Positions 11,104-27,982 of a DNA stretch of 64,000 bases are shown here, piece by piece. The stretch comes from Candidatus Wolfebacteria bacterium RIFOXYD12_FULL_48_21 (GTDB lineage Bacteria; Patescibacteriota; Minisyncoccia; UBA6257; UBA9933): positions 202,239-266,238 of the forward strand of contig MGIW01000006.1 of assembly GCA_001793945.1 (NCBI GenBank). The letters are read 5' to 3'. The notes under the pieces were generated by a model. That model was given only the letters and a program-made list of their open reading frames with translations, ran no database searches and was not told where the DNA came from. How positions within the stretch are numbered: position 1 is the stretch's first letter; each line of letters opens with the position of its first letter. The position numbers and the translations under genes were made by a program.

Positions 11104-11104
11104 G

Positions 11105-11300: not shown

Positions 11301-11313
11301 TGCTAAACCACCC

Positions 11314-11339
11314 ATGACCCAAGACGAAGCATTTGCAAT
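11314..11339 (+). repeat. direct repeat copy of the first 26 nt of the helicase gene (atgacccaagacgaagcatttgcaat)
   Basis: Identical to 12170-12195; ~20 nt upstream also similar. Confidence 0.8.
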
Positions 11340-11393
11340 TTTGTACGAGTAATAAACTCGATACTCTGTATCAGATATTATATAATAAAGCTT

Positions 11394-11879: not shown

Positions 11880-12009
11880 AAAAAGAGGCATAGCCGCGGG
11901 ACGGAACCCTTTGGTTAGCCTCTCATCGTGATAGTTAAAGTATAACAATTGGTCAATATATGTCAATATAAATCAATCCCGCACCTGCGGGATTTATGCT
12001 ATTATAGGT

Positions 12010-12140
12010 ACACATTTATGACCCTCGCATTGTCATTCCCGTCCTTCGACAAGCTTAGGATAAAACTTCGAGCGGGAATCCAGAGCCTGTGTCATTCCGA
12101 GCGGAGTGGTACTCCATGTAGTCGAGGAATCTGCAGTATT
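12010..12140. repeat. MITE-like hairpin units
   Basis: cattgtcattcccgtccttcgacaagcttaggataaaacttcgagcgggaatccagagcctgtgtcattccgagcggagtggtactccatgtagtcgaggaatctgcag. Confidence 0.7.
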
Positions 12141-12169
12141 CGTAATTTTTACTACAAACCTTATTACCT

Positions 12170-13894: not shown

Positions 13895-14170
13895 ACTTGT
13901 TTCAGGATCTGGGCGGGGGTCATTCCCGCGAAGGCGGGAATCCAGTATCCCCGCATTGTCATTCCGGCCTCCGAGCCGGAATCCAGTATTTGTGTCATTC
14001 CCGTGAAAACGGGAATCCAGTATCCCCGTATTGTCATACCGGCCCGTTCGACAGGCTCAGGGTAAAACTCCGGCCGGTATCCAGCGCATTGTCATTCCTG
14101 CAAAAGCAGGAATCTACTTCGCATTTTTCGCATTGTCATTCCGGCCTCCGAGCCGGAATCCATCCCCACT
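13895..14170. repeat. tandem array of about seven MITE-like hairpin units
   Basis: Units gtcattcc-[cgcgaaggcg / ggcctccgagcc / cgtgaaaacg / tgcaaaagca]-ggaatccag separated by tatccccgcatt-like linkers; preceded by tcatcctgaacttgtttcaggat hairpin. Confidence 0.8.
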
Positions 14171-14291
14171 CCATAACCGTGAAAACATGCCATTGTACGG
14201 CCACTTTTCACGGTTATGGACGCAAAACCGTGAATGATCGTTTTCGTGACGTTAGTAAAATGGTTGATGCTTTCCAATCCCTCGTACTAAC

Positions 14292-14321
14292 TTGACAGTT
14301 TATTCATGTGTACGCTATTAT
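14292..14321 (+). promoter_or_regulatory. sigma-70-like promoter TTGACA-18-TATTAT upstream of Phd/RelE pair
   Basis: TTGACA 14292-14297, TATTAT 14316-14321, overlapping gtac...gtac palindrome. Confidence 0.5.
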
Positions 14322-14327
14322 GTACAT

Positions 14328-14687
14328 ATGGATAGCAAGACAACAATTTCAATTTCCGAAGCACGGAAGAAAATATTCGATATTGCCACCGAGGTACAGG
14401 CTCCCGGTAAGCACTATACATTAACTGAAAAAGGCCGACCAAAGGCGGTTATTATGTCTGCCGAAGAGTTTGAATCGTGGACGGAGACCATGGAAATCAT
14501 GCGTGAATTTCCTGACATTAAAAAAGATATTGCCCGTGCCGAGCGGGAATATAAGAGTGGTAATTATATAACCCTTGAAGATCTCTTGGAAAAAGAGGGG
14601 TATGTGTTAGCGGGTAAGACATCTAAAAACTATGCAGTATCGGATCATTCTGCCAAAAAGCGTACAAAAGGAGCTCGAAAAGCTTGA
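14328..14687 (+). CDS. Phd/YefM-family antitoxin
   Basis: ISISEARKKIFDIATEV...HYTLTEKGRPKAVIMSAEEFESWTETMEI is the Phd/YefM fold; unusually long C-terminal extension overlapping the toxin start. Confidence 0.6.
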   Translation: MDSKTTISISEARKKIFDIATEVQAPGKHYTLTEKGRPKAVIMSAEEFESWTETMEIMREFPDIKKDIARAEREYKSGNYITLEDLLEKEGYVLAGKTSKNYAVSDHSAKKRTKGARKA

Positions 14688-14883
14688 TAAGAAGATTAGA
14701 ATGCGGGTGATTGTAACCTTGCAGGAATTAAGCAAAGATCCTTTTGCCGGGAAAAAGTTGCAAGGAGAACACGCAGGCCAGTGGTCGGTACGCGCATGGC
14801 CATATCGGGTCATCTACAGGATAAACAAAGGCGAGCTCGTTGTACTTGTTATTCGCATCGCTCATCGGCAAGGAGCGTATTAA
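14632..14883 (+). CDS. RelE/ParE-family toxin
   Basis: MQYRIILPKSVQKELEKL...YRVIYRINKGELVVLVIRIAHRQ. Confidence 0.65.
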   Translation: MQYRIILPKSVQKELEKLDKKIRMRVIVTLQELSKDPFAGKKLQGEHAGQWSVRAWPYRVIYRINKGELVVLVIRIAHRQGAY

Positions 14884-15150
14884 AAACCCCCCCGCATTGT
14901 CATTCCCGCCCATTCGTCCGCCGGCTGGCGGATCAGGGTAAACTCCGGCGGGAATCCGTGGCCTGTGTCATTCCCGTGAAAACGGGAATCCAGTATCCCC
15001 GCATTGTCATCCCGTGCTCCGACACGGGATCCAGATCATGTGTCATTCCCGTGAAAACGGGAATCCAGTATCCCCGCATTGTCATTCCGGACTTGATCCG
15101 GAATCCAGTATTTGTGTCATTCCCGTGAAAACGGGAATCCAGAGTAGAGG
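14884..15150. repeat. tandem array of MITE-like hairpin units
   Basis: gtcattcccgtgaaaacgggaatccagtatccccgcattgtcat... repeated; includes ccgccggctggcgg core hairpin. Confidence 0.8.
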
Positions 15151-15199
15151 GGAAAATGGTACCCGACCCCTTTAATGACAACAAATTATTTCTAATGCA

Positions 15200-15275
15200 A
15201 ACAGATAAGATCCCTCATCCCTGCGGGATTTTTGGTTGGTTTATAAATGGGGTGGGATTTGGTAAGATTGAGTTG
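15200..15275 (+). promoter_or_regulatory. conserved terminator+leader module (copy b): atccctgcgggatttttggttggtttataaatggggtgggatttggtaagattgagttg
   Basis: Hairpin atccc-tgc-gggat plus T-run, followed by a conserved 40-nt tail; related copies at 19725-19770, 20345-20400, 21265-21325 and a partial one at 11965-11995. Confidence 0.6.
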
Positions 15276-15299: not shown

Positions 15300-15653
15300 A
15301 TGGAGAAAATCAAAGCACTTACGCAGAAAATTGTTGCATTTCGAGACGAGCGGGATTGGAAGCAATTTCATAACCCCAAAGACGAGGCGTTGTCTTTGGT
15401 TTTGGAAGCAGCTGAAGTTATGGAGCATTTTCAATGGAAATCCGCCGAAGAAATGCAAAAACATGTCACGGATCAAAAGGAGGAAATCGGAGCAGAGCTT
15501 GCAGATGTCTTTTACTGGGTTTTATTAATGAGTCATGATCTCGACATCAATATCGCAGACGCGCTGGAGAACAAAATTAAGAAAAATGCCGAGAAGTATC
15601 CTGTTGAAAAGTCAAAAGGTAGCCATGCAAAATATATCAGGATAGAAAGCTAA
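15300..15653 (+). CDS. MazG-like nucleotide pyrophosphohydrolase (short single-domain form)
   Basis: LTQKIVAFRDERDWKQFHNPKDEALSLVLEAAEVMEHFQWK...ELADVFYWVLLMSHDLDINI...ENKIKKNAEKYP matches the MazG/NTP-PPase fold. Confidence 0.7.
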   Translation: MEKIKALTQKIVAFRDERDWKQFHNPKDEALSLVLEAAEVMEHFQWKSAEEMQKHVTDQKEEIGAELADVFYWVLLMSHDLDINIADALENKIKKNAEKYPVEKSKGSHAKYIRIES

Positions 15654-15670
15654 TAATATTATTGTGATCC

Positions 15671-16462
15671 ATGCCGAGAGAAATTATCATAACAGCAGAA
15701 TACTTTAAGCAATATCGCCGACGGTTGGGGTTTGCCACTCAGGCCGGAGTTAAAAATTTTTTCGGAGCAAAGGACATCGTTCCAGGCGTAGATTTTGATT
15801 ATGTGCAGTATTTAAACGATAGACTTTACGAGATCATTGATCGTATAAATGATGCGTTAGTTGATAGTATAAAGGTTGACAATGTGGACACATTCAAGCG
15901 GGAGCATGTCGATAGGGTTTTTGAAATAATAAAAGATAATAATATTTTGCCCGTATTGAATAATCAAGGAAGGAGACCCGAGGATGTGTACTTCTCTTGG
16001 ATGAGGGGATATGTTATTTCAAATTTATTTTTAAGGGCACTGGAAAGCATATTCGGTGTCGATGCATCGACCATTGAGCTCATCGGCGACGATGATTTGC
16101 GAAGCGTGGAAACTTTTAAGCGAACGCCAAAAGCCGACTTGGAGATTAATCTCGGGGAAAGGGGGCGAATACGAATAGAAATGCAATCGGGCTTTACAGG
16201 AATCAACGACATTAAGCAACATAAAGTCCTTGAGGCAAAAAGAGTTTTTAGTGATATGGGCGTTCATACATTGGCGGTTCATTTTGACCTGTATAACGGC
16301 CAAGCCGCCTTTGTGATGCTCGATGATGTCAGTGAAGATGATGTAAATTGGATTACAAGGCAACAAATGGAGGGACAAACTGTTTTTAACATAGATCAAA
16401 ATAAATTTATCTGGAAGATTACCGAAGATCCGATCAGGTATGCAGACATAATTTTCGAGTAA
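15671..16462 (+). CDS. hypothetical protein, candidate type II restriction endonuclease partnering the C5 methyltransferase
   Basis: 263-aa ORF ending 10 nt before the MTase start; no known motif; call rests on context. Confidence 0.3.
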   Translation: MPREIIITAEYFKQYRRRLGFATQAGVKNFFGAKDIVPGVDFDYVQYLNDRLYEIIDRINDALVDSIKVDNVDTFKREHVDRVFEIIKDNNILPVLNNQGRRPEDVYFSWMRGYVISNLFLRALESIFGVDASTIELIGDDDLRSVETFKRTPKADLEINLGERGRIRIEMQSGFTGINDIKQHKVLEAKRVFSDMGVHTLAVHFDLYNGQAAFVMLDDVSEDDVNWITRQQMEGQTVFNIDQNKFIWKITEDPIRYADIIFE

Positions 16463-16471
16463 GATTTAACC

Positions 16472-17596
16472 ATGGGAAAGATTAAAGTTGTTGATTTATT
16501 TGCGGGAGTGGGGGGATTGAGCTATGGTTTTGCACATGACCCCCATTTTGAAATTGTTGCAGCAAATGAGATATTGCCGAATATGGCAAAGGCTTATTCT
16601 CTGAACCACCCTGGCGTGCGGGTTTACGCCGAGGACATCAAGGATTTTAGTGCAAAAAAAATAGAAAAAGATTTAAAAATAAAACCCTCCGAGATTGATA
16701 TTATCGTGGGCGGCCCCCCTTGTCAGGCCTATTCGACCGTCGGGAAAAGGCTTATTGGCGATCCTCGAGGGCAACTTTTTCAAGAATATTATCGAGTGCT
16801 GAAGGAATTTAATCCAAAGCTTTTTATCTTTGAAAATGTAAAAGGTCTTTTGTCGATGCAAAACGGTGAATTGTTAAAAGCAATCATTGTCTTATTCGAA
16901 TCACTCGGTTACAGGGTTCAGTATAGAGTTTTAAATGCTGCGGATTACGGAGCGCCGCAAATAAGGGAACGGATTATTATTGTCGGATCAAAATTAAAAT
17001 CCGATTTTATATATCCCAAGCAAACCCATTGTGATCCCGTTCGATTGATGGGATTAGCGGGCGCATCTTTAAAGCCTTACCTAACACTTGGAGAGGCTAT
17101 TGGCGATTTGCCTTTTATGAGAAGCGGGGCGGAGAGCTTTGAGTATGCATCGGATCCGCAGAGTGATTTTCAGAGACTTATGCGAAAAGGTTCTCCCGAC
17201 AGGCTGATGGACCATTGCGCGCCAAATAATAATGCTAAGCTGGTTAACATGATGGAGCTTTTGCCCGATGGAGGTACGCCGGAAGATTTGCCCGAGCACT
17301 TGCGGCCGACATCGGGTTTTAAAAATACCTATTGCCGCTTATGGTGGAAAAGGCCTTCGACGACAATAACTAGGAATTTAAGTACACCCTCTTCGTCGAG
17401 GTGTATTCATCCAAAAGCGCCCCGACCTTTGACGACAAGAGAGGGTGCGAGACTCCAATGCTTTCCCGACTCCTATCAATTTTTTGGTTCTCGCAGCGAT
17501 AGAAATCTTCAAATTGGGAATGCGGTCCCAACTTTTTTGGCGAGCGCTATAGCCGCAGCGATTTTAAAAAATTTTAAAGCCGAAGAGCTCATTTAA
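16472..17596 (+). CDS. DNA (cytosine-5)-methyltransferase
   Basis: Motif I DLFAGVGGLSYGF, motif IV GGPPCQAYS, motif VI ENVKGL, motif X-like GNAVP. Confidence 0.9.
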   Translation: MGKIKVVDLFAGVGGLSYGFAHDPHFEIVAANEILPNMAKAYSLNHPGVRVYAEDIKDFSAKKIEKDLKIKPSEIDIIVGGPPCQAYSTVGKRLIGDPRGQLFQEYYRVLKEFNPKLFIFENVKGLLSMQNGELLKAIIVLFESLGYRVQYRVLNAADYGAPQIRERIIIVGSKLKSDFIYPKQTHCDPVRLMGLAGASLKPYLTLGEAIGDLPFMRSGAESFEYASDPQSDFQRLMRKGSPDRLMDHCAPNNNAKLVNMMELLPDGGTPEDLPEHLRPTSGFKNTYCRLWWKRPSTTITRNLSTPSSSRCIHPKAPRPLTTREGARLQCFPDSYQFFGSRSDRNLQIGNAVPTFLASAIAAAILKNFKAEELI

Positions 17597-17717
17597 AAAT
17601 AGACGGATATTTTCTCCAAGGAAAACCGCAGCGAGATATTGGCTGTAGTAAAGGGGAAGGGAAATATGACCACCGAGATTGCCCTGATAAAAATTCTGCG
17701 GGAGGAGAAAATAACCG

Positions 17718-17987
17718 GTTACCGACATGGCAGAAAAGCGTGGCGTAACCGAAACCACGATCATCGCCCATTTGGAAAAGCTGGTTGCCAATGGAACCCT
17801 CGATCCTGCAGCCGATTTGGAATACCTAAAGCCCGAACGCCGACGATTTGTAACTATGCAAGCCGCGCTTGAAAAGACCTACAAAAAGAAGGGGAGCATG
17901 CTATTAACCCCCGCCCAGGCACTCCTTGGGCCTAGTTTTACATTTGAGGAGTTGAGGGTGGCACGGTTGTTTTTAATTACCCCGTGA
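17718..17987 (+). pseudogene. duplicated 3' fragment of the Pif1-like helicase gene (HTH_40 tail), displaced copy
   Basis: MAEKRGVTETTIIAHLEKLVANGTLDPAADLEYLKPERRRFVTMQAALEKTYKKKGSMLLTPAQALLGPSFTFEELRVARLFL is about 95% identical to helicase residues encoded at 13611-13880; lacks the helicase core. Confidence 0.75.
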
Positions 17988-18077
17988 TGAGCGGAGCAGA
18001 TTTTATGGGAGGAGAAAGAGTGGATGAGTTTTTTGAAAATACCTTTTAGCATATTTAGGTAGTTTAACAGCACCTAT

Positions 18078-18110
18078 TGACACCATTATTCATGGTGTTA
18101 TTATTAGTAT
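18078..18110 (+). promoter_or_regulatory. candidate promoter TTGACA-18-TATTAG with caccattattcatggtg palindrome
   Basis: cctattgacaccattattcatggtgttattattagtatgc just upstream of the first small HTH gene. Confidence 0.4.
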
Positions 18111-18145
18111 GCAAGTTAAAAGAAATACTTAATAAAAATAAACAC

Positions 18146-18391
18146 ATGGAAAAATCTGAGGGACTATCTGAACTTAAAGAGCTTAACAAGAAGATTGAGG
18201 TAGTGATTGCTCTGCTTCTTAAAATGTTACCTAAAGATAATCAGGGAATTTCACTTAAAGATCAAATTAAATTGTTGGATAGTCTCCATATTCGGCCAAG
18301 TGAAATAGCTGAAATTATCGGACGAACTCAGAGCTATGTGAGTAAAGAGCTTGTGTACATCCGAAAGGATAAAAAACAAAAAATTAACTAA
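18146..18391 (+). CDS. small HTH protein, paralog 1 of 4
   Basis: MEKSEGLSELKELNKKIEVVIALLL...SEIAEIIGRTQSYVSKEL (sigma-70 region 4 / LuxR-like HTH pattern). Confidence 0.5.
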   Translation: MEKSEGLSELKELNKKIEVVIALLLKMLPKDNQGISLKDQIKLLDSLHIRPSEIAEIIGRTQSYVSKELVYIRKDKKQKIN

Positions 18392-18403
18392 TAATATATC
18401 TAT

Positions 18404-18619
18404 ATGAGTGAAAATGAAATTTTGTCATCAGTGTCAAAAAAGCTAGGAGTTTTAATTGCTTTGAATTTGATGACGCTTAATAGCAAGGCAACTGTAATTG
18501 ACAATGTTGCTCTACTTGATCGTTTTGGTTTATCTACTACTGAAATTTCGGAAATATTAAATACCTCTAAAGGTACGGTCGATGTTACGAAAAGTAGAAT
18601 TAAAAAAGGAAAAAAATAA
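18404..18619 (+). CDS. small HTH protein, paralog 2 of 4
   Basis: ...LGVLIALNLMTLNSKATVIDNVALLDRFGLSTTEISEILNTSKGTV. Confidence 0.5.
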   Translation: MSENEILSSVSKKLGVLIALNLMTLNSKATVIDNVALLDRFGLSTTEISEILNTSKGTVDVTKSRIKKGKK

Positions 18620-18623
18620 TAAT

Positions 18624-18806
18624 ATGGAAAGTAAAGAACTTATTAAAGAGTTAAAATCTTTAAATAAAACAATAAAAGATCAGTTCATCTTCCTTTTATG
18701 CCGAGAAGGTTATACTAAAGAACAAATTAGGATAATTATCGGAAGTATTGATAATACTAGGATAACCCAGATTAGTTCTGGGCTTAAAAAAATAAATAAA
18801 AAATAA
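18624..18806 (+). CDS. small HTH protein, paralog 3 of 4
   Basis: MESKELIKELKSLNKTIKDQFIFLLCREGYTKEQIRIIIGSIDNTRITQISSGL. Confidence 0.45.
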   Translation: MESKELIKELKSLNKTIKDQFIFLLCREGYTKEQIRIIIGSIDNTRITQISSGLKKINKK

Positions 18807-18808
18807 TC

Positions 18809-18979
18809 ATGACGAAACAGAAAGAGCAAAAGTTGGATACTTTGGAACAGATCAAGCGACTACTCATTCTTGCCCTAGTGCATCAAGGTGTCCAAGGGAA
18901 GGATGTTGCTGCGGTGCTCGGCGTTGATCCGGCGGTTGTCAGCCGTATGGTTCCAACTCGGCAAATAAAGAAGAAATAA
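18809..18979 (+). CDS. small HTH protein, paralog 4 of 4 (56 aa, below ORF-track cutoff)
   Basis: Own translation: MTKQKEQKLDTLEQIKRLLILALVHQGVQGKDVAAVLGVDPAVVSRMVPTRQIKKK; same architecture as the other three. Confidence 0.45.
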   Translation: MTKQKEQKLDTLEQIKRLLILALVHQGVQGKDVAAVLGVDPAVVSRMVPTRQIKKK

Positions 18980-18983
18980 TGAT

Positions 18984-19709
18984 ATGGCCCGCCCTCGCAT
19001 CCTTGATTTAAAACTAATGGTAAAAATTGCCAAAAAACTTGGCAAAAAGGATACTATTTCTATAAATAAGATGGTAAGTAGAAAAGCATCAAAACTTGGC
19101 ATATCTGCCGAGTCGGCTTTGATACTTTTAGCGAAGGAGTATGGGATAGGTGCATCTACATATCAGCGTAATCTTGGTGTTACGAAACAAGCGGAGGTGC
19201 GAGATGCATTGCCATCTATTTTTATACAAGCGCGGGCGATGAGTCATGAGAATAAGACAAAAAATAATAGCGAGGTAAAACCGTCTATTAGTAAAAAAAC
19301 AGCACTGAAGCTTACAATAGAGTATTTAATCGAGGATCAGGAATTACGAAGTAGATGTCAGGATATTCTTATGGCTTCTGCAAATTTTGATAGACCTATT
19401 AACCAAGCAACTTTAGTACTTGAGGATAGAATAAGGAAAAAAGCAAAACCTCTTACGAAAATGGTTGGGGAAAATTTAGTGGGGTATGCTTTTAATGAAG
19501 AAATTTCCAAAACAGTTCTTCGCGTTGCGAGTAATGATGCTGATGATCAGCGTGGATTTGCACAAATTTTGAGAGGTATTGTACCTGCATTTCGAAATAA
19601 AACACATCATCATATTGTTGAACATTTTTCTAGAGAAGAGGCAATCAGAGTTTGTGGGTTTATCGATGTTTTGTTACGAGTTGTAGATAATTCTGTAAAA
19701 ATAAAATAA
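18984..19709 (+). CDS. hypothetical protein with C-terminal CHP02391 (Hypoth_Ymh)-like domain
   Basis: C-terminal ...GFAQILRGIVPAFRNKTHHHIVEHFSREEAIRVCGFIDVLLRVV resembles the TIGR02391 family seen in defence contexts; assignment tentative. Confidence 0.35.
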   Translation: MARPRILDLKLMVKIAKKLGKKDTISINKMVSRKASKLGISAESALILLAKEYGIGASTYQRNLGVTKQAEVRDALPSIFIQARAMSHENKTKNNSEVKPSISKKTALKLTIEYLIEDQELRSRCQDILMASANFDRPINQATLVLEDRIRKKAKPLTKMVGENLVGYAFNEEISKTVLRVASNDADDQRGFAQILRGIVPAFRNKTHHHIVEHFSREEAIRVCGFIDVLLRVVDNSVKIK

Positions 19710-19779
19710 GCTTAATAGTCACTCCTGCGGGATTTTTGGTTGGTTTCTAAATAAGGTGGAATTTGGTAAAATTTTAAAA

Positions 19780-20280
19780 ATGCCGTATAAAGATCCAGCA
19801 AAATTTAAGGAGTTAAATTTTTTGTTTAAAGAAATAATAGACCGGATTATGATCGCTGATATCTTGCGATTAAAAGAACTTGACCCACTATTAAGATTTC
19901 ATGGTTCCGAATATTATGGTGGACGCGGGACGACTCCCATGGTTCTTTATATTTTTGTTTGCATGGAATTTTTGGGTTCTTTAATAATGGAAGTTGAAGC
20001 TAAGGGTTCCGGTAGTACACAGAAAAAAGTTTTGGCGTATATGGAGATGACTTTTGGTCCCGATATGGATTTGTTTATTACACACAGAAGGTTGTTTATT
20101 AAATTTTATCGCAACGCATTAGCTCACGGATTTTTTCCTGGAGGAGGGGGTATAAGTCGGGGCGGCTCGCAAGTATTAGGAGTAACAGCGAGAGGGGATT
20201 TAATTCTTGACGCTGATATTTTGCAGATATGTTTGTTAGGTCGGTGTGGCGTTTTAAACGGCTATTTCGTTCTCGGATAG
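19780..20280 (+). CDS. hypothetical protein
   Basis: ORF preceded by conserved module copy c; the ORF-track start at 19756 is a GTG inside the module, so the ATG at 19780 is used; no motif recognised. Confidence 0.35.
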   Translation: MPYKDPAKFKELNFLFKEIIDRIMIADILRLKELDPLLRFHGSEYYGGRGTTPMVLYIFVCMEFLGSLIMEVEAKGSGSTQKKVLAYMEMTFGPDMDLFITHRRLFIKFYRNALAHGFFPGGGGISRGGSQVLGVTARGDLILDADILQICLLGRCGVLNGYFVLG

Positions 20281-20420
20281 GCTTGACTACATATCCTTAT
20301 TTGGTAAATCAAGTTGTCGATAGATTTTTAAAAATACAGCAGAGATAACCCTGATCCTTTATAATTTATAAATGGGTCAGAATTTGGTAAGATTGAGTTG
20401 AAATGGGGTGTAATTATTAA

Positions 20421-21257
20421 ATGGAGAATACAATCGTGGAAATGTTAATACCGCATAATGATCCGAATGGACTTCGGATTATTAAGCTTGCTGGGTGGAT
20501 CGGAAGGGCATTTGTTATTCCTCGTGCAGATATTAAAGAGATAAAAGCATTAAAGGAGGCGAGTCATCCTGCTGTGTATTTTCTTATTGGAGAAGAGGAT
20601 GGTAAGGCAACTGTTTACATAGGACAAACTGATAATTTTGAGCGTCGACTTAATCAGCAGGTGGTAGCAAAAAATTATTGGGATATCGCCATGGTATTTA
20701 CCGGCGAATTGGATATTGATGTTCAATATTTAGAATATATTTGCACAAAAGAAGCAAGAGAGTCTGGTAGATATGAAATAAAAAATGCAACAGGAACGCC
20801 TGGGCGGAATATATCTGATTTTCAACGAGTTGCGAATAATAAGTTTTTTGAAAATATAAAGTTCGTTGTCTCATTGTTAAGTTACCCGATTTTCCAGGAA
20901 GTTCCGAAGGAGCAGCAGGCTGATAAAATCTATCACCTTAAACTTTCGAGGAGTAATGATGTTTTAGGAAGGGGTGCACTGCTTTCAAGCGGTGAGTTTG
21001 TAGTATACGCAGGATCTATGGCTCGAATAGTCGAAGCAAAAAGCTTTCAGGGAAGGAAGGGGTCTGGGCTTCGCAAACAACTTATCGATGAAGGTGTTTT
21101 GCAGAATCAAGATGGTATTTCTTATATTTTTACAAAAGATTATATTTTTGGAAGTCCAAGCGCAGCTGGTTATGTTATCACTGGTATGTCGACAAATGGG
21201 TGGACGAGCTGGAAAGACAAGAATGGAAAGACCCTCGATGAGAATGTGAGGAAATAA
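20421..21257 (+). CDS. GIY-YIG nuclease domain + DUF4357 protein
   Basis: PAVYFLIGEEDGKATVYIGQTDNFERRLNQ (GIY-YIG); C-terminal YIFTKDYIFGSPSAAGYVITGMSTNGWTSWKDKNGKTL (DUF4357-like). Confidence 0.65.
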   Translation: MENTIVEMLIPHNDPNGLRIIKLAGWIGRAFVIPRADIKEIKALKEASHPAVYFLIGEEDGKATVYIGQTDNFERRLNQQVVAKNYWDIAMVFTGELDIDVQYLEYICTKEARESGRYEIKNATGTPGRNISDFQRVANNKFFENIKFVVSLLSYPIFQEVPKEQQADKIYHLKLSRSNDVLGRGALLSSGEFVVYAGSMARIVEAKSFQGRKGSGLRKQLIDEGVLQNQDGISYIFTKDYIFGSPSAAGYVITGMSTNGWTSWKDKNGKTLDENVRK

Positions 21258-21363
21258 CTTGTAAAAATCCCGCATTCCTGCGTGATTTTTAGTTGGTTTA
21301 TAAATAGGGTGGAATTTGGTAAGCTTGGGAGTAATAAAGGTTACCCATGAAATTATTGGAATT

Positions 21364-23763
21364 ATGAGTCTCTACGAGAAATTACAAAAAGCTACGAGTG
21401 AAGAGGATGTTAAAGATATCTATATAAAAGCACTTGGGCTAAAGGAATATCAGAAAAATCTTATAGATATTCAAACGAAAGAAGTTTGGTTCGAAGCCAA
21501 GCAGAATTCTAAGCTGTCGACTTATGCCATGTTCACCCAGCTACTGCATTATGTGCAGGAGGCACTGGATAAGGGAGGATATGTTCCTCCATTTTTGGCC
21601 GTAATTGATACGCAAAAGGCAGCTATAATGAAAAGTGTCGATATTATTCCCTTTCTCGAAAAGAAAACTATTAAGTGGGGCAAGTCAGCAAGTAGTTATA
21701 CACAGGAAGCTCTCGATATTGTATCTGCGTATATTGGCACGCACTTTGTTTCTTTTAAGATTGAAACGCACGAGGAAGAATTTATACAAGCAATTAAAGG
21801 CGCTATTAAAAATGGCGATATTATTAGAACTCAAATTACCCCAGACAATTTAAAACAAGTTTTCGATAAGTGGGTACAGATGATCGGGCGAGAAATAAGG
21901 GATGTTAAAGAGGAGGATTATGTGCTGCTATTTTTTGCTGATATTATGCATGACGGTACTGTTTCTACGCATAATGATCTTCCTGCAGAGTTATTACACA
22001 AAAATAATGCTCCGGTATTTAGTCTGGGCGGGAAAATTTATGAACTCGGAAATAAAGAAGGTTATCGACAATTCTGGGCAATTTATCACAAACCGCCAAA
22101 AGCAGAATATCGCGATTATTTATTAGAACGGAGAGACAGTCTAATCCCAATTGATGAAAGAAGTTTTAAAGGTGCCTATTACACACCGCTCCAAGTGGTG
22201 GATAAGGCTTATGATAAACTTCTAGAAACCTTAGGAGATAATTGGCAAAAAGAGTATATCGTATGGGATATGTGTTGTGGCGTTGGAAATTTAGAGGTTA
22301 AACATAGTAATCCTCGCAATATTTACATGTCTACATTAGACAGTGAAGATGTGGATGTGATGAAAGCTACTAAAACCTGCGTAGCGGCGCAGCGGTTTCA
22401 ATACGATTATTTGAATGATGATATTGCTGATGATGGTAAAATAGATTACACACTAACTAATAAAGTGCCTGAAGGTTTACGCAAGGCTATTGCTGACGGC
22501 AAAAAGATTTTAGTGCTGATCAATCCGCCATATGCGGAAGCTATGAGTGCTGATAATATATCAAATAATGAAAAGGCGGAAAGTAAGTTAGGCGTTTCTA
22601 AGACTCGGGTTGCGTCAATAATGGATACTCAGGGTTATGCAACTAGGGAGTTATTCGTGCAATTTCTCGTGAGATTATCGCTTGAGATACCAAGTGCTAC
22701 CTTGGCGATGTTTAGCAAATTAAAATATGTAAATGCCCCTAATTTTGAGAAATTTAGAGAAACCTGGAATGCGAAATATAAGGGTGGTTTTATCGTGCAC
22801 AGCAAGGCTTTTGATGGATTAAAGGGTGATTTCCCAATTGGCTTTTTAGTGTGGCAAACAGATCAAAATGCAAAAGTGAAAACACCGATAATTGAATTAG
22901 TGGCTGAAGTGCTGGATAAAAATGCTAATCCAATTGGGGAGAAATATTTTTATAATCTATCAAACGACAAGCTTCTTGGAGATTGGATAAAAAGACCCAA
23001 AGCAAATAAGATCGATGTTGTGCCATTAAAAAATACAGTTACTCCAGCTACGGTTAGTAAAGATTTACGAGGAACAAAATGGTCCGATAATGCAATTGGT
23101 TGCATGATTTTTCAGGGTAGTGATGTTCAACATTCAAAAACAACCGCAATACTGTCCTCGGGTTTTGGTAGTGCGGGGAGTATATTTATCAATCCGGAAA
23201 ATCTTTGGCAAGCCTCGATCATTTTTGCTGTTCGCCGTCTCATTAAGCCTACTTGGGTGAACGATCGGGATCAATTTTTGCAACCAACAGAACCACTTAC
23301 CGATGAGTTTAAAAATGATTGTCTTGTATGGATGCTTTTTAATGGAAGTAATCTTACCGCCAGCGCAAATGATCTCGAGTGGAATGGTAAGAAATGGTCA
23401 ATTGTTAATCATTTTATCCCGTATACCGAGGAAGATGTAAACGCTCCAGAACGCTTTGAATCAGATTTTATGGTGCGGTATTTAGCTGGTAAGCAGTTCT
23501 CGCCTGAAGCGGTCGCAGTATTGAGAGAAGGAAAGTTGTTGTGGCAAGCATATTTTGCGAATACAGACACCAGAACGGTTCGAGATGAATTGATGTTGAA
23601 TCGTCCTGATGTGGGGTGGTATCAAATCAGAAAAGCGATCCAAGCGCGAAATGCGATTAGTGATTCTTCTCCAGTTAGTTTAGAATCTTTTGAAAAGGAG
23701 TACGGCGCTTTAACCGAAAAGCTAAAACCTCAAGTATATGCGTTAGGATTTTTAAAAATCTAA
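21364..23763 (+). CDS. Type IIG restriction-modification enzyme (MmeI-like: N-terminal PD-ExK nuclease + gamma-class N6-adenine MTase + target-recognition domain)
   Basis: N-terminal D-x8-E-A-K (LIDIQTKEVWFEAKQ) like the MmeI catalytic triad; MTase motif IV VLINPPYAEA; large C-terminal region. Confidence 0.7.
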   Translation: MSLYEKLQKATSEEDVKDIYIKALGLKEYQKNLIDIQTKEVWFEAKQNSKLSTYAMFTQLLHYVQEALDKGGYVPPFLAVIDTQKAAIMKSVDIIPFLEKKTIKWGKSASSYTQEALDIVSAYIGTHFVSFKIETHEEEFIQAIKGAIKNGDIIRTQITPDNLKQVFDKWVQMIGREIRDVKEEDYVLLFFADIMHDGTVSTHNDLPAELLHKNNAPVFSLGGKIYELGNKEGYRQFWAIYHKPPKAEYRDYLLERRDSLIPIDERSFKGAYYTPLQVVDKAYDKLLETLGDNWQKEYIVWDMCCGVGNLEVKHSNPRNIYMSTLDSEDVDVMKATKTCVAAQRFQYDYLNDDIADDGKIDYTLTNKVPEGLRKAIADGKKILVLINPPYAEAMSADNISNNEKAESKLGVSKTRVASIMDTQGYATRELFVQFLVRLSLEIPSATLAMFSKLKYVNAPNFEKFRETWNAKYKGGFIVHSKAFDGLKGDFPIGFLVWQTDQNAKVKTPIIELVAEVLDKNANPIGEKYFYNLSNDKLLGDWIKRPKANKIDVVPLKNTVTPATVSKDLRGTKWSDNAIGCMIFQGSDVQHSKTTAILSSGFGSAGSIFINPENLWQASIIFAVRRLIKPTWVNDRDQFLQPTEPLTDEFKNDCLVWMLFNGSNLTASANDLEWNGKKWSIVNHFIPYTEEDVNAPERFESDFMVRYLAGKQFSPEAVAVLREGKLLWQAYFANTDTRTVRDELMLNRPDVGWYQIRKAIQARNAISDSSPVSLESFEKEYGALTEKLKPQVYALGFLKI

Positions 23764-23847
23764 TCATTTTAACCTTAGGAGGTGGTCGTGGTATTGCCAG
23801 AGATAATATAATTAACAAAGGAAATTGATAAAAATTAATATTTAATT

Positions 23848-24330
23848 ATGGACCCACAAAACAAAGATTTTATAAAGCATCTTATTAAGGGGAAGATTGC
23901 AGAGATTATATTTGAGCAGATGTTTCGAGAATCGGGGAAGTATACCATCCTTCGTTCTGGTTATGAATACACGCTTCCTGAGCTTGCGCAGTACCAACAT
24001 ATTGCTGAGATTAAAGCCGTTATGGAAAATATTCGTAATGCACCCGATTTCATACTTGTTTCCCAGGATAAAACCGAAGTACATTTGGTTGAAGTTAAAT
24101 ATCGCGCTAACCGATATACAAATGAAGTAAATGAGCTTGCTACTAATCTGCTCGTACGATGGAATCCTTCTTGGCTTTTTGTCGCTTGCCCTGATGGATT
24201 CTTCTTTGAGCCGTGTAATACGATTGCCAATAAAGAAGGAGAGATTGGTCCGCTTTTTGAAAAATGGGTAGCCCCTGAAATTCAAGCTGAGTATTTAAAA
24301 CTACTTAATGAATTCGAGCCGAAGGGGTGA
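23848..24330 (+). CDS. PD-(D/E)xK nuclease-like protein
   Basis: NAPDFILVSQDKTEVHLVEVKYR gives PD...E-V-K spacing typical of the restriction-endonuclease fold. Confidence 0.4.
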   Translation: MDPQNKDFIKHLIKGKIAEIIFEQMFRESGKYTILRSGYEYTLPELAQYQHIAEIKAVMENIRNAPDFILVSQDKTEVHLVEVKYRANRYTNEVNELATNLLVRWNPSWLFVACPDGFFFEPCNTIANKEGEIGPLFEKWVAPEIQAEYLKLLNEFEPKG

Positions 24331-24345
24331 TATTTGATATAAATA

Positions 24346-24963
24346 ATGCTTGATATTGAAAATCTTCTCAAGGAATTATCTAAGAAGCGCCCGGTCTTTC
24401 ATTCGGAGGCTGATTTTCAGCATGCGCTTGCTTGGGGAATTCATGAAGCTTATCCGGACTATAAAATTCGACTGGAGATTCGGCCCGGGAATTCCAAAGA
24501 AAAGGAATATCTTGATATATTCATTGAATATAAAGGGATAAATTGTTTTATCGAATTAAAATATAAAACTAAGAAATATAGCGTAGAATTTGATCGTGAA
24601 AATTTTTCTCTCGCAGGACATAGTGCTCATGATATTGGGAGATACGATTTTATTAAAGATATTCAGCGGGTAGAAAAATTTTTGGGGAAAGATGACATGG
24701 CCGAGGGTTATGCGATTCTGTTGACCAATGACAGGGCTTATTGGTCCGAATCGTATCGCATGACCGTCGATAAGGATTTTCGTGTTCATGAGGGTAGAAT
24801 TTTACAGGGTCGCCTTGTATGGGATCAAAGGGCATCAGAGGGTACAAGGAAGGGGAGAAACAAAGAGCTTCATTTACGAGGGACTTATGAGTGTAATTGG
24901 AATGATTTTTCAAATATTGATTCTGAGAGTTTTCGATACTTGTTAATTAAGGTTAGAAATTAA
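24346..24963 (+). CDS. PD-(D/E)xK nuclease-like protein (second, unrelated in sequence)
   Basis: YLDIFIEYKGINCFIELKYK gives D...E-L-K; upstream acidic residues HSEADFQHALAWGIHEAYPD. Confidence 0.35.
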   Translation: MLDIENLLKELSKKRPVFHSEADFQHALAWGIHEAYPDYKIRLEIRPGNSKEKEYLDIFIEYKGINCFIELKYKTKKYSVEFDRENFSLAGHSAHDIGRYDFIKDIQRVEKFLGKDDMAEGYAILLTNDRAYWSESYRMTVDKDFRVHEGRILQGRLVWDQRASEGTRKGRNKELHLRGTYECNWNDFSNIDSESFRYLLIKVRN

Positions 24964-24978
24964 TGCTATAATTACCCC

Positions 24979-25560
24979 ATGAACCTCAAACCCCTCATAC
25001 AACTGACCATTGCAATTGCAATAGCCGAACTCGCGGGGATCATTGGGTCATTTTTTACTGTGGGTGCTATAGATACTTGGTATGCGGGGATCGTTAAGCC
25101 TGCGTGGAATCCGCCCGCTTGGGTGTTTGGGCCGGTGTGGGTGGTGTTGTATGCGATGATGGGGGTTGCGGTTTGGTTGGTGTGGAGGAAGATGGATTCC
25201 CGGCGCATTGCAAGGAGCGGGGAGATCCTGAAACAAGTTCAGGATGACAATGCAAGCGGGAATGACAAACTAATAAAGGCAGCACTCTGGGTTTTTGGGG
25301 TGCAGTTGGGTTTGAACGCCCTGTGGTCCACCATCTTCTTTGGCTTGCACAGCCCGGGATGGGCTTTTGTAGAGATCGTTCTGTTGTGGGCCGCCATCGT
25401 CGGTACGATCGGCGTGTTTTGGCGCATCTCGAAGCCTGCGGCGTTGCTGTTGGTCCCTTACATTTTGTGGGTCAGTTTTGCAGGGTATTTGAACTACACC
25501 ATTTGGGATTTGAACAAGATCGACGAGCAAATGGTGTTTTGCACTGCCGATGCCATGTAA
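24979..25560 (+). CDS. tspO: TspO/MBR tryptophan-rich sensory protein, carrying an in-frame MITE-derived insertion
   Basis: KPAWNPPAWVFGPVWVVLYAMMG...WSTIFFG...LVPYILWVSFAGYLN; the inserted segment SRRIARSGEILKQVQDDNASGNDKLIK is encoded by atcctgaaacaagttcaggatgacaatgcaagcgggaatgacaa. Confidence 0.8.
   Translation: MNLKPLIQLTIAIAIAELAGIIGSFFTVGAIDTWYAGIVKPAWNPPAWVFGPVWVVLYAMMGVAVWLVWRKMDSRRIARSGEILKQVQDDNASGNDKLIKAALWVFGVQLGLNALWSTIFFGLHSPGWAFVEIVLLWAAIVGTIGVFWRISKPAALLLVPYILWVSFAGYLNYTIWDLNKIDEQMVFCTADAM
25222..25268 (+). mobile_element. MITE-family element inserted in-frame within tspO
   Basis: gatcctgaaacaagttcaggatgacaatgcaagcgggaatgacaa matches the intergenic copies at 30130-30175 and 13895-13925. 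Confidence 0.7.
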
Positions 25561-25711
25561 TGCCCGGACGGAACATTCGTAGGCCGCACCGGCCCAAACT
25601 GCGAGTTCCAATGCCCTTGAATTCCCCCCCCCATTTTTCTCATCTAACCCATCTAATCTAATTCATCCAACCCACCCAACCAACCCATTCAACCCTACCC
25701 CACAAAAATGC

Positions 25712-25750
25712 TTAATAATATTGCTATAGCAATATTATTAAGCGTTTTCT
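25712..25750. repeat. perfect palindrome gcttaataatattgctatagcaatattattaagc (copy 1)
   Basis: 17-bp arms; identical copy at 26446-26480; the two bracket the 25789-26418 gene. Confidence 0.8.
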
Positions 25751-25788: not shown

Positions 25789-26418
25789 ATGAAAAAAAGG
25801 GTGGATGGCAAACAAAGGCGAATCAGTGGGGCTTCGAGGAGGGATAAGGCCAAGGATCTGACGGGGAAGATTCTTCGGTTCTTGCTAATTAGTGGAGGCA
25901 TCGCTATTGCGATGACTTCGCCGTATTTTGTTACCAAAGTCGTCTACCCTGCGCTTGGCAAGTTGTTGTCCGGGGATGATTCGCTTAGCGATCCGGAGAA
26001 GAAGGCTCAGCTGCGCAATACATTTTACTATCTTCGGAGTAAGGGCTTTATTGAATTTGAGGATAGGAATGGGCAGGTGTTCATTTCTTTGACCGGAGAA
26101 GGCAAACGGATGGCCGGTAAGTATCAGATCAACGACTTAAAGATCAGGAAAGATAAGAAGTGGGATAAAAAGTGGCGCATATTGATCTTTGATATCGCCG
26201 AAAAGCATAAGATCAAGCGGGAGGCGCTGCGGGGCAAATTAAGAGAGCTGGGGTTTTATCAGTTGCAGAAAAGCGTGTGGGTGTATCCGTATGATTTTGA
26301 GCGGGAGGCCGTGCTTCTGCGGGATTTTTTTGGCCTTGCCGTGAAAGAAATGACGATCATTGCGGAGGCGAAGATCGAGGAGGATGACAACCTTCGGAAA
26401 TTTTTTGATGTTGCGTAA
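25789..26418 (+). CDS. PaaX-like regulator family protein (tentative)
   Basis: WDKKWRILIFDIAEKHKIKREALRGKLRELGFYQLQKSVWVYP resembles the PaaX C-terminal W-x-W-x5-D-[IL]-PE...R...LR..L...GF..LQ.SVW segment; N-terminus contains a hydrophobic helix. Confidence 0.35.
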   Translation: MKKRVDGKQRRISGASRRDKAKDLTGKILRFLLISGGIAIAMTSPYFVTKVVYPALGKLLSGDDSLSDPEKKAQLRNTFYYLRSKGFIEFEDRNGQVFISLTGEGKRMAGKYQINDLKIRKDKKWDKKWRILIFDIAEKHKIKREALRGKLRELGFYQLQKSVWVYPYDFEREAVLLRDFFGLAVKEMTIIAEAKIEEDDNLRKFFDVA

Positions 26419-26445
26419 TATTTATAGTGTACGCAAGGAATTAAA

Positions 26446-26480
26446 AACGCTTAATATTATTGCTATAGCAATATTATTAA
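26446..26480. repeat. perfect palindrome gcttaatattattgctatagcaatattattaagc (copy 2)
   Basis: See copy 1. Confidence 0.8.
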
Positions 26481-26614
26481 GCGTTTTTGTAGGGTGCGAT
26501 AACGATGCGATTTGTGTGGTGTATGTGATATACTTGATGTAGTTGCCCGTTGGATGCTGGTTGGCAGATGGGGTAGGGGTTATGGTTTGGGAATTTTAAA
26601 ATAGTAGATTCGTT

Positions 26615-27025
26615 ATGGCGTCATCTATGCAAGAAATGATTAATGTTCCTTTAGTTGGTTCCGCTCCGTGCGGGGCGCCGCTTTTTGCGGAAGAGAATGT
26701 TGAGAAAATGATACCCGTGGCAAAGGAAAAGTTGCAGGGAGGTTTGCAGTATTTCATATTGCGCGCAACCGGGGATTCTATGGATGCGGCGGGGATTAAC
26801 GACGGTGATCTTATTTTGTGCAAGCAAAAGCTGACGGCGCGGGAGAACGATCTCGTCGTCGCGCTGATCGATGATGAAGCTACGGTTAAGGAGTTTCATC
26901 GGGAGGGAGATAAAATTGTGCTTAAACCGCGCTCGACAAATCCGGAGCATCAGCCGCGCTATCTTACCGAAGGAGTGCAGATACAGGGGATCGTGCAGGA
27001 GGTTGTGCGTCCACTTGAGAACTGA
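26615..27025 (+). CDS. UmuD-like S24 peptidase (LexA/UmuD C-terminal domain only, no HTH)
   Basis: Candidate Cys-Gly cleavage site (SAPCGAPLF), catalytic Ser in ATGDSMDAAGINDGD, Lys in DEATVKEF. Confidence 0.65.
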   Translation: MASSMQEMINVPLVGSAPCGAPLFAEENVEKMIPVAKEKLQGGLQYFILRATGDSMDAAGINDGDLILCKQKLTARENDLVVALIDDEATVKEFHREGDKIVLKPRSTNPEHQPRYLTEGVQIQGIVQEVVRPLEN

Positions 27026-27434: not shown

Positions 27435-27686
27435 ATGACTACTTTAACCGTGCGGATCGATGAAAAAATAAAGGCGAAGGCGAACAAGGCATTTGAAAAG
27501 CTTGGGCTTGATATGTCTGGCGCGATAAAGATCTTCCTCAATCAGGTCATCAAGGAAGATGGTCTTCCGTTTACGCCTACCAATAACGATGCCGTTATTA
27601 AGGCTCGTTGGGATAAGCAGGTTGCTGAAGCGAAAAAACGGCCTGGCTTTAAAACTGCGCACGAAGCGCTTAAGGATCTTTTATAA
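27435..27686 (+). CDS. dinJ: DinJ/RelB-family antitoxin
   Basis: LTVRIDEKIKAKANKAFEKLGLDMSGAIKIFLNQVIKEDGLPF matches DinJ. Confidence 0.75.
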   Translation: MTTLTVRIDEKIKAKANKAFEKLGLDMSGAIKIFLNQVIKEDGLPFTPTNNDAVIKARWDKQVAEAKKRPGFKTAHEALKDLL

Positions 27687-27697
27687 TTTATCTACCA

Positions 27698-27982
27698 ATG
27701 TACATCATTAAACGTACGAGAGATTTTGATAAATCTTTTACGAAGCTTGTTCGTGCGGGAATTACTGATAAACAGATTGGGGCGATCAAACTCGTGATTG
27801 ACACGCTTGCTATAGGGCAAATATTAGATAAGAAATACAGAGATCATCAGCTAAAAGGGAAGCTCGGAGATTATCGAGAATGCCATGTTTTAAATGATCT
27901 TTTACTTATGTATAGAATTGAAGAGGATGAATTATTATTAACATTGATCGATATCGGCAGTCATTCGCAATTGTTTGGGTAA
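27698..27982 (+). CDS. yafQ: YafQ-family mRNA interferase toxin
   Basis: ...LKGKLGDYRECHVLNDLLLMYRIEEDELLLTLIDIGSHSQLFG matches the YafQ C-terminus. Confidence 0.75.
   Translation: MYIIKRTRDFDKSFTKLVRAGITDKQIGAIKLVIDTLAIGQILDKKYRDHQLKGKLGDYRECHVLNDLLLMYRIEEDELLLTLIDIGSHSQLFG

Follow-up and report, generated by a model that had tools for sequence, protein, structure and literature searches.

Consecutive defence-type cassettes in a low-GC island of a Candidatus Wolfebacteria genome

The 64-kb window of the Candidatus Wolfebacteria bacterium RIFOXYD12_FULL_48_21 genome analysed here (all coordinates are window positions) contains an island of low GC (guanine plus cytosine) content at about 18.0–25.0 kb, and the question it raises is whether its ten genes make up one defence system or several that are stacked side by side. 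In order, they encode four small helix-turn-helix (HTH) proteins, HTH1 to HTH4, a Ymh-family HEPN protein, the protein unk166, a GIY-YIG/DUF4357 protein, the predicted nuclease–methyltransferase MT800, and two small PD-(D/E)xK(-like) proteins, p160 and p205. A sequence-only reading of the same DNA had proposed a multi-gene system, or accessory set, around a Type IIG enzyme, with several stacked single-gene systems as the alternative. Composition, gene content, domain and fold assignments, neighbourhood conservation, and a repeated 64-nt unit were observed directly, and on this basis we regard it as probable that the region is a horizontally acquired defence-type island of independent consecutive cassettes rather than one cooperating system. 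Six units would be involved, namely the HTH–Ymh operon, unk166, the GIY-YIG/DUF4357 gene, MT800, p160, and p205, for which we infer biochemical activities and defence roles from homology and context. This corrects the attractive one-system reading: genes that lie together in a defence island are not thereby a system. The island itself is of a known kind; what stands out in it is the unannotated MT800 family on the one hand and the HTH-array/Ymh-HEPN operon on the other.

Borders of the island and neighbourhoods of its genes

The low GC content recorded in the earlier reading was confirmed by two measures. The GC content is 0.370 at 18001–24965 versus 0.489 in the remaining window; all seven 1-kb windows of 18001–25000 fall at 0.33–0.39, while the other 57 have a mean of 0.489 (standard deviation 0.038). 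The GC content at third codon positions (GC3) is 0.21–0.35 in the island genes, HTH4 being the exception (0.49), versus 0.55–0.69 in the flanking core genes PIF1, TspO, PheS, and PheT. The gene order and sizes of the earlier reading were recovered, and all ten genes are indeed located on the + strand; however, their co-directionality is not distinctive, since long open reading frames (ORFs) lie mostly on the + strand across the whole window.

The island begins after a duplicated gene end. The last 266 nt of a PIF1-type helicase gene (13601–13866) are repeated directly at the left border, 17709–17974 (+ strand), with 88% identity at the DNA level and 95% at the protein level, and the drop in GC content starts immediately 3′ of this second copy. 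An ORF within it (17727–17987), which Pfam identifies as an HTH_40 fragment, matches helicase residues 484–566 at 79 of 83 amino acids (aa). The right border is sharp, with 15 bp between the end of p205 and the high-GC TspO gene. The low GC and GC3, the start after the duplicated helicase 3′ end, and the sharp TspO border speak for a foreign origin and horizontal acquisition of the island. The pair of 266-nt repeats resembles an att-type duplication at an integration hot spot, yet no integrase domain was found at either border or among 20 proteins scanned at 12–26 kb. No tRNA genes lie at the borders, and an Rfam scan of 14–26 kb gave no credible RNA family within the island. The same arrangement is present on several JGI contigs of RIFOXYD12_FULL_48_21, and p160 and p205 exactly match locus tags A2524_01700 and A2524_01705 of this bacterium.

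The neighbourhoods of the island genes in other genomes bear on their independence. Scanning one genome for each GTDB species yielded 299 relatives of MT800 (21364–23763, + strand), and the best 80 loci, all from other species and with copies 68–85% identical, were examined with up to 10 kb on each side using tblastn with all island proteins. Genes for the GIY-YIG protein, Ymh, unk166, and p205 were found at none of them, and the only island gene detected within 10 kb of MT800 was a p160 homologue at two loci (L001 and L054 in our numbering). Clustering of the flanking ORFs revealed no family in more than eight of the 80 loci, and those obtained were common families in variable positions. MT800 relatives named "hypothetical protein" also stand alone on 10-kb plasmids, one of Acinetobacter (66.5% identity) and one of Fluviibacter (59%); the small genes that follow them on these plasmids were compared with p160 and rejected as p160-like. 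Six viral or prophage contigs of IMG/VR carry an MT800 relative, one of them with an integrase 4 kb upstream, and GenBank phage records gave no match. No conserved neighbour was thus found across the 80 genome loci, two small plasmids, and six viral or prophage contigs, and MT800 is rejected as the core of a multi-gene system.

The other genes are also found apart. Relatives of p205 were located in three other organisms, solitary beside tyrosine integrases, in a prophage beside an integrase, and beside a serine recombinase, and those of p160 occur in varied contexts without MT800 and p205. The GIY-YIG protein is matched over nearly its full length by the profile of a single-gene candidate, PDC-S14. 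The independence of the cassettes is concluded from these contexts, from this match, from the 80 loci at which MT800 lacks the other island genes (p160 in L001 and L054 aside) and any conserved neighbour family, and from its lone occurrence on small plasmids and presence on an integrase-bearing viral/prophage contig. The homologues occur separately, an outcome that the sequence-only reading had itself named as speaking against a joint system.

Further evidence for stacking comes from a 64-nt unit, a palindromic hairpin with a T-run followed by the promoter-like 37-mer GGTTGGTTTATAAATGGGGTGGAATTTGGTAAGATTG, which occurs four times in the window, always at the start of a cassette, in copies 77–89% identical. 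The 37-mer may comprise a −35 element TTTATA, a 17-nt spacer, and an extended −10 element TGgTAAGAT. One copy (15207–15275) precedes a block of MazG-like, restriction endonuclease, and Dcm genes upstream of the island. The others, all on the + strand, precede unk166 (19711–19779; 77% identical to 15207–15270), the GIY-YIG gene (20365–20400; a partial copy, with the promoter-like part and without the hairpin, 89% identical to 15240–15275), and MT800 (21264–21332; 88% identical to 15207–15270). Since the unit looks like a terminator plus a promoter, each cassette would have its own promoter, and its position before three island cassettes and a fourth block upstream points to stacked systems. Neither the 80 foreign MT800 loci nor the IMG/VR contigs contain the unit, which therefore belongs to this lineage and does not travel with the genes; it could have arisen by duplication or gene conversion, or be a recombination site.

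Some of these observations could be accommodated differently. The duplicated gene 3′ end at the border recalls att-like duplications, MT800 relatives are present on 10-kb plasmids and beside an integrase, p205 relatives adjoin integrases or recombinases, and toxin–antitoxin pairs flank the region, as might be seen in the leftover cargo of a degraded integrative element. The nucleases and the methyltransferase–nuclease would then be mainly selfish addiction or maintenance genes, serving post-segregational killing and the exclusion of competing elements rather than anti-phage immunity. However, genes for an integrase, a transposase, or replication were not seen at 14–25 kb, and we consider this explanation rather unlikely; it overlaps with that of independent defence-type cassettes and does not exclude it. 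Restriction-modification and toxin–antitoxin modules commonly serve both defence and maintenance roles. Far less credible still is one cooperating system extending from the HTH array to p205, built around the Type IIG enzyme and using the extra nucleases as accessory factors or as effectors of abortive infection: the tight, co-directional packing, the shared low GC content, the proximity of p160 to MT800 in two further Patescibacteria, and the promoter-like unit used by several cassettes speak for it, but the lack of shared neighbours at the 80 loci, the solitary MT800 genes on small plasmids, the occurrence of p205, p160, and Ymh relatives without MT800, and the hairpin and promoter-like units that separate the cassettes make it very improbable.

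Several points weigh against complete independence of the cassettes. In L001 (Saccharibacteria; region 12864–14245), the MT800 homologue is followed 1.4 kb downstream by a p160 homologue with 54% identity, and in L054 (Patescibacteria; 12417–12890) another with 39% identity comes directly downstream. With the window, p160 is thus near MT800 in three Patescibacteria, so a lineage-specific partnership is possible, and the proximity in L001 and L054 hints at either lineage-specific linkage or a common insertion spot. The shared 64-nt unit could reflect co-regulation of the cassettes instead of independence. In addition, the 80 loci are the best of 299 and all at least 68% identical, and tblastn at E 1e-4 could miss divergent small partners. 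Between the MT800 and p160 homologues of L001 lies a protein in which a Fic-type HPFxxGNGR motif was recognised by eye.

The MT800 enzyme family

MT800 consists of 799 aa (most relatives have 790–860), in which a predicted PD-ExK nuclease, a gamma-class N6-adenine methyltransferase, and C-terminal domains form a single chain. Its motifs are D35-x8-E44-A-K46 and N387-P-P-Y; across 44 full-length relatives, the most distant with 26% identity, D35, E44, and K46 are almost invariant, and D302 and G306 of motif I, as well as N387-P388-P389, are invariant. The AlphaFold model is confident (predicted local distance difference test, pLDDT, 89.4; predicted template modelling score, pTM, 0.78), and the structures that Foldseek matched best to it are those of DrdV (E 1e-11 over about 758 columns), the Type IIG enzyme BpuSI, and the Type IIL enzyme MmeI, followed by M.BseCI, BsaXI, CamA, BrxX/PglX, and Type ISP enzymes, with an identity of only 8–14% in the structural alignments. 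In the predicted secondary structure D35 precedes one strand and E44 and K46 lie at the end of the next, as do D70, E80, and K82 of MmeI (PMC2731913). A search of PDB sequences with the family profile also gave DrdV as the best match (7lo5, E 3.9e-5), and single-sequence PDB searches with MT800, p205, and p160 gave nothing useful. Judged by architecture and predicted fold, MT800 is Type IIG/IIL-like and represents an unannotated family.

The designation "Type IIG, MmeI-like" in the earlier reading thus agrees with the architecture, the motifs, and the fold, with DrdV, BpuSI, and MmeI as the best matches, but not with membership of the MmeI sequence family. None of the domains MmeI_N, MmeI_hel, MmeI_Mtase, MmeI_TRD, and MmeI_C was matched by MT800 at E 0.1 or by any of the 44 relatives at E 0.01, and the Eco57I family of Pfam matched only one of these relatives. 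The methyltransferase part of MT800 gave weak matches to N6_Mtase (E 0.01) and TIGR02987 (E 1e-5). As a positive control, a 989-aa protein encoded near an MT800 homologue on an IMG/VR contig (L093) matched MmeI_Mtase at E 4e-17, and also Eco57I and TaqI_C strongly. Members of the MmeI family range from 908 to 1184 aa (PMC2731913), so that MT800 falls about 100 aa short of even the smallest of them. The absence of MmeI Pfam domains, the 8–14% identity, and the shorter chain place MT800 outside the MmeI family by sequence. On the L093 contig (2712–14610), the MT800 homologue (76% identity) is located between a tyrosine integrase and the convergent 989-aa enzyme of canonical MmeI/Eco57I type, so that two different single-chain restriction-modification-type genes lie side by side.

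The family is large. A word-indexed protein search with MT800 returned 5,344 proteins at E ≤ 1e-3; the best 120 of them, the exact copy aside, are 74–84% identical, have "hypothetical protein" as every source name and no Pfam domain on record, and, where named, include members of Patescibacteria, Bacteroidota, Betaproteobacteria, and Ignavibacteria. An exhaustive search of representatives at 50% identity gave 1,922 clusters at E ≤ 1e-3, of which 627 reach E ≤ 1e-30. With more than 5,000 database proteins, at least 299 species, and occurrence on plasmids and prophage-like contigs, MT800 could represent a Type IIG/IIL-like family of very large size that is missed by Pfam, NCBIfam, PADLOC, and PHROGs. 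The core subfamily is 68–85% identical across phyla. The GC content of its genes tracks that of the host flanks (r = 0.83, n = 64), with proteins still 69–85% identical, which points to wide dispersal with strong purifying selection. Residues of about 480–620 are the least conserved region of MT800. In the MmeI family, a few substitutions can change specificity, and given this variable region, no conclusion of a fixed specificity in the MT800 subfamily is drawn. In two loci, L036 (match 10001–12460) and L072 (10001–12382), the MT800 homologues contain in-frame stop codons and may be pseudogenes or assembly errors.

MT800 is probably a self-contained enzyme: its NPPY methyltransferase domain would methylate adenine in the host DNA, and the N-terminal D-x8-E-x-K nuclease would cut unmethylated incoming DNA, as MmeI, DrdV, and BpuSI do. 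Enzymes of this type were missed by the four libraries tested though widespread, and an MT800 profile would change restriction-modification counts in many genomes of Bacteroidota, Proteobacteria, and Patescibacteria. The family could also yield new single-chain enzymes for methylome and biotechnology work.

The HTH array and the Ymh-type HEPN protein

The one real multi-gene module of the island, which the sequence-only reading did not single out, is the HTH array together with the Ymh gene. The four tandem HTH paralogues described there were confirmed: HTH2 to HTH4 are 27–36% identical to HTH1, and a hidden Markov model (HMM) built from the four proteins and iterated on related Ymh loci marks 106 small ORFs at such loci. 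All are on the + strand. HTH1 (18146–18391, 81 aa) occupies positional type "A" of the array and shows generic HTH matches only, with KorB (E 0.02) as its sole Pfam match; the array of most related loci starts with a gene that is 42–52% identical to it and falls into the same similarity cluster. HTH2 (18404–18619, 71 aa) matches Sigma70_r4_2 (E 1.3e-5), HTH_23 (E 1e-3), and the family HMM (E 4e-16). HTH3 (18624–18806, 60 aa, or 74 aa with a start at 18582) is a divergent paralogue with no Pfam match and a family HMM match at E 1e-10, and HTH4 (18809–18979, 56 aa) matches HTH_23 (E 2.8e-4). The matches of HTH2 and HTH4 to generic HTH families are below threshold, and no PADLOC profile matched the HTH proteins. 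The GC content of HTH4 is 0.47 versus 0.25–0.34 for HTH1 to HTH3, and this outlier suggests that the array may be a mosaic built by recombination.

The adjoining Ymh protein (Ymh241; 18984–19709, + strand, 241 aa) confirms the CHP02391 (Ymh)-like C-terminus of the earlier reading: PF09509 is matched at E 9e-15, with 55.0 bits against a cutoff of 25, and TIGR02391 just below threshold (E 1e-9, 38.5 against 39.45). The FRNxTHH motif (R-x4-H) is invariant, with R204, H208, and H209 conserved in all 20 relatives compared, and a ANFDRPINQATLVLEDRIR segment is also common to the Ymh proteins. The N-terminal domain of about 100 aa is conserved and has no type assigned; its candidacy as a further HTH paralogue was rejected (best domain E 0.08). 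The best PADLOC profile, PD-Lambda-3_B (E 1e-5), covers the HEPN part only (profile positions 128–265 of 270), and PD-Lambda-3_A matched none of the 10 island proteins, so the two components of PD-lambda-3, described as an abortive-infection system (PMC13190303), were not both detected. Ymh is a HEPN family of predicted RNases, often found in operons with restriction-modification genes, and has been reported solo or fused to paraMORC, AbiJ-NTD1, or AbiTii (PMC3710099).

A metagenome scan with Ymh241 gave 39 loci with 46–84% identity on contigs of GC 0.35–0.61. Counting only the 27 loci in which 700 nt or more of sequence precede Ymh, and defining lineages at 90% identity, we found two or more HTH ORFs within 1.5 kb upstream of Ymh in 25 loci (15 of the 16 lineages) and three or more in 24. 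These 25 loci keep two to five HTH genes beside Ymh, usually in a fixed order and mostly tightly packed on the same strand, the arrays being divergent in L118–L120. The usual order is that of 74-aa, 57-aa, 60-aa, and 78-aa types followed by Ymh, with positional orthology between loci; the window array is a variant of type A, an A/D-like copy, a divergent copy, and a 56-aa type. By tblastn and clustering, HTH4 resembles an extra HTH copy beside the Ymh gene in L112, L113, and L134, this 56-aa type being located after Ymh in the first two and upstream on the opposite strand in the third. None of unk166, the GIY-YIG protein, MT800, p160, and p205 was found at the related Ymh loci of the metagenome set, and Ymh had no match in PLSDB plasmids or GenBank phages. 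We found no description of an HTH array with Ymh in the literature.

The operon appears to have a strong promoter. A sigma-70-like site at 18077–18104 (+ strand; TTGACA, 16 nt, TATTAT, with TG before the second hexamer) is the best promoter match in 15.0–25.8 kb (11/12) and is overlapped by an inverted repeat at 18078–18100 (ACACCAT...ATGGTGT), a candidate operator. Several related loci carry TTGACA and TATTAT separated by 16–17 nt upstream of the first HTH gene, bracketed by GGTAAT...ATTACC as seen by eye. The four HTH proteins and then the Ymh protein, a putative RNase effector, are probably produced from this promoter as one operon. Purely as a hypothesis, the HTH proteins could repress the operon and/or restrain the RNase until infection or loss of the element, which would make it a toxin–antitoxin-like or abortive-infection module. 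We advance only tentatively the stronger proposal that an array of two to five ordered HTH paralogues with a Ymh-HEPN protein is a real, new conflict system, of abortive-infection or addiction type, in which the HTH paralogues would form a hetero-oligomeric repressor, an antitoxin, or a sensor for the RNase.

If the operon served ordinary regulation or housekeeping, such as transcriptionally controlled RNA processing, and lay in the island only incidentally, this would agree with the generic DNA-binding matches of the HTH proteins, the lack of PADLOC matches to them, and a metabolic-looking gene of the PPDK_N type downstream of Ymh in three lineages. We find this improbable, however, since most HEPN proteins in which the R-x4-6-H motif is intact are predicted to act as toxins or defence RNases (PMC3710099), and the module has foreign composition here. 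The range of contig GC (0.35–0.61) with otherwise varying flanks also fits a mobile unit, and N4/N6 DNA methyltransferases adjoin the module in several lineages, as reported for Ymh (PMC3710099).

The PPDK_N (PEP/pyruvate-binding kinase-type) gene lies directly after Ymh in L109 (5770–6714), L115 (1766–3298), and L122 (2773–3585), three lineages that differ widely in GC content (0.38, 0.60, and 0.56), is absent from the window, and could be a facultative partner or mark a common insertion site. In L109 (2603–4165, minus strand) the HTH–Ymh genes adjoin a gene for a 520-aa protein in which a LexA DNA-binding domain is fused to an S24 peptidase and to an N4/N6 DNA methyltransferase; the same gene is present in L110, L111, and L127. 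The small HTH-array/HEPN operon, in which five short genes follow a conserved promoter region and the catalytic motif is obvious, makes a clean candidate.

Remaining cassettes, flanking region, and comparison with known systems

Behind its own copy of the cassette-start unit lies unk166 (19780–20280, + strand, 166 aa), which had no match in Pfam (even at E 10), NCBIfam, PADLOC, PHROGs, or viral contigs, and whose 90%-identity cluster has four members, the named ones only from Wolfebacteria. Its YRNALAHG segment resembles the HEPN R-x4-H motif by eye; since the library and viral searches were negative and hhalign found no similarity to the Ymh family, this is an unsupported lead.

The GIY-YIG/DUF4357 protein (20421–21257, + strand, 278 aa) is, by sequence, a member of the single-gene candidate defence family PDC-S14 (PADLOC, E 8e-73; residues 5–275 against profile positions 18–294 of 301). 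The domain call of the earlier reading is supported by DUF4357 (E 2.8e-22), GIY-YIG itself being below threshold (E 0.003); RAMA (E 6e-4) and phrog_12629 (E 1e-46) were also matched. The "S" in the PADLOC name presumably marks single-gene candidates. To our knowledge, PDC-S14 is only a candidate system without a published mechanism, and only census-type mentions of it were found in the literature.

Of the two small proteins at the end of the island, which also occur alone elsewhere, p205 belongs to the PD-(D/E)xK nucleases by predicted fold and triad, and p160 may be PD-(D/E)xK-like, as the earlier reading suggested for both. p160 (23848–24330, + strand) has 478 relatives, every source-named one from Patescibacteria; it has P66-D67-F68 and K84 as invariant residues and E82 as an almost invariant one, and shows a weak match to VRR_NUC (E 0.11), while two relatives carry precomputed DUF2726 or TnsA_N matches. 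p205 (24346–24963, + strand) has 3,122 relatives, few named and spanning several phyla, and has a predicted restriction-endonuclease-like fold with a D...E-x-K triad (D57, E70, and K72 are invariant) followed by a beta-rich C-terminal domain, for which no match was found. Among 47 relatives of p205, four match DpnII-MboI of Pfam (best E 8e-7) and three HSDR_N_2, and the family profile gave nothing useful against PDB. Apart from the weak VRR_NUC match, neither protein was matched in Pfam, NCBIfam, PADLOC, or PHROGs, and no cognate methyltransferase was paired with p205 in four other loci examined. That the two proteins are unrelated, as had been stated, is supported by hhalign: kinship was rejected at a probability of 11%, only the E-x-K strand being alike.

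The island is part of a variable region at 11–28 kb. The 266-nt repeats bracket a 4.1-kb block of intermediate gene GC (about 0.40–0.44) that contains repeats resembling repetitive extragenic palindromes (REP), a Phd/YefM and ParE toxin–antitoxin pair (14328–14883), a MazG-like gene (15300–15653), and, at 15671–17596, genes for a 263-aa protein ("restriction endonuclease" at NCBI, no Pfam match) and the C5 cytosine methyltransferase Dcm (PF00145, E 1.5e-74), which probably form a Type II restriction-modification pair just upstream of the island. Further out are an NYN-domain gene (11394–11879, GC 0.33), an S24 peptidase gene (26615–27025), and a RelB and YafQ toxin–antitoxin pair (27435–27982). 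Multi-copy repeats TGTCATTCC...GGAATCCAG resembling REP or miniature inverted-repeat transposable elements occupy intergenic regions at 11.1–15.2 kb (11100–15170), and an inverted copy at 25224–25253 lies inside the TspO ORF, whose product has about 20 aa extra relative to the Pfam model. A near-perfect palindrome of 45–52 nt, AAAAACGCTTAATATTATTGCTATAGCAATATTATTAAGCGTTTTT, flanks a PaaX_M-domain gene (25789–26418) at 25697–25748 and 26444–26495.

Small genomes of the Candidate Phyla Radiation (CPR)/Patescibacteria have been little studied for immunity, and the island provides a concrete example of how defence genes may be assembled in them, as repeated promoter-bearing cassettes at a gene 3′ end. 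Like other defence islands, it clusters unrelated defence-type genes, with a probable Type II restriction-modification pair and toxin–antitoxin pairs nearby. It shares with integrons a repeated unit at the cassette starts, but integron cassettes are promoterless, whereas the island units are promoter-like; an integron-type cassette array was rejected, no integrase or attC-like sites being present.

Among single-chain enzymes, MT800 resembles MmeI, DrdV, and BpuSI in its N-terminal PD-ExK motif (x8 here, x9 in D70-x9-E80-x-K82 of MmeI; PMC2731913), in a predicted adenine methyltransferase of the gamma class, in which motif I precedes motif IV (NPPY), and in the C-terminal domains that follow. 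With both catalytic domains apparently intact in one chain, it has the Type IIG layout, and like the homologues of MmeI, it has no second methyltransferase and no conserved flanking gene (PMC2731913). It is unlike the MmeI family in its length of about 800 aa and in lacking all of its Pfam domains, and it differs from MmeI, DrdV, and BpuSI in an immediate subfamily that is unusually uniform across phyla. Enzymes of the MmeI family cut about 20/18 nt away from an asymmetric site, and methylating one strand protects the host.

The HTH–Ymh module, with its C-terminal Ymh HEPN domain and invariant R-x4-H motif, is comparable to Ymh/HEPN toxin or abortive-infection modules such as PD-lambda-3 and HEPN-MNT, and, as with reported Ymh genes, it is located near restriction-modification genes (PMC3710099). 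Its partner is an ordered HTH array, unlike the MNT nucleotidyltransferase of HEPN-MNT or the paraMORC, AbiJ-NTD, and AbiTii domains of the listed Ymh fusions; with PD-lambda-3 it shares a weak match to the B component through the HEPN part, without an A counterpart. The GIY-YIG protein matches PDC-S14 nearly end to end and includes DUF4357, with nothing notable that differs. Finally, p205 resembles small PD-(D/E)xK nucleases (Hjc/RecU resolvases, DpnII/MboI restriction endonucleases, DUF820, and the Cas4 core) in its predicted fold and triad, and p160 in its putative PD...E-x-K motif; both differ from them in matching no Pfam family themselves, and p205 also in its additional C-terminal beta domain.

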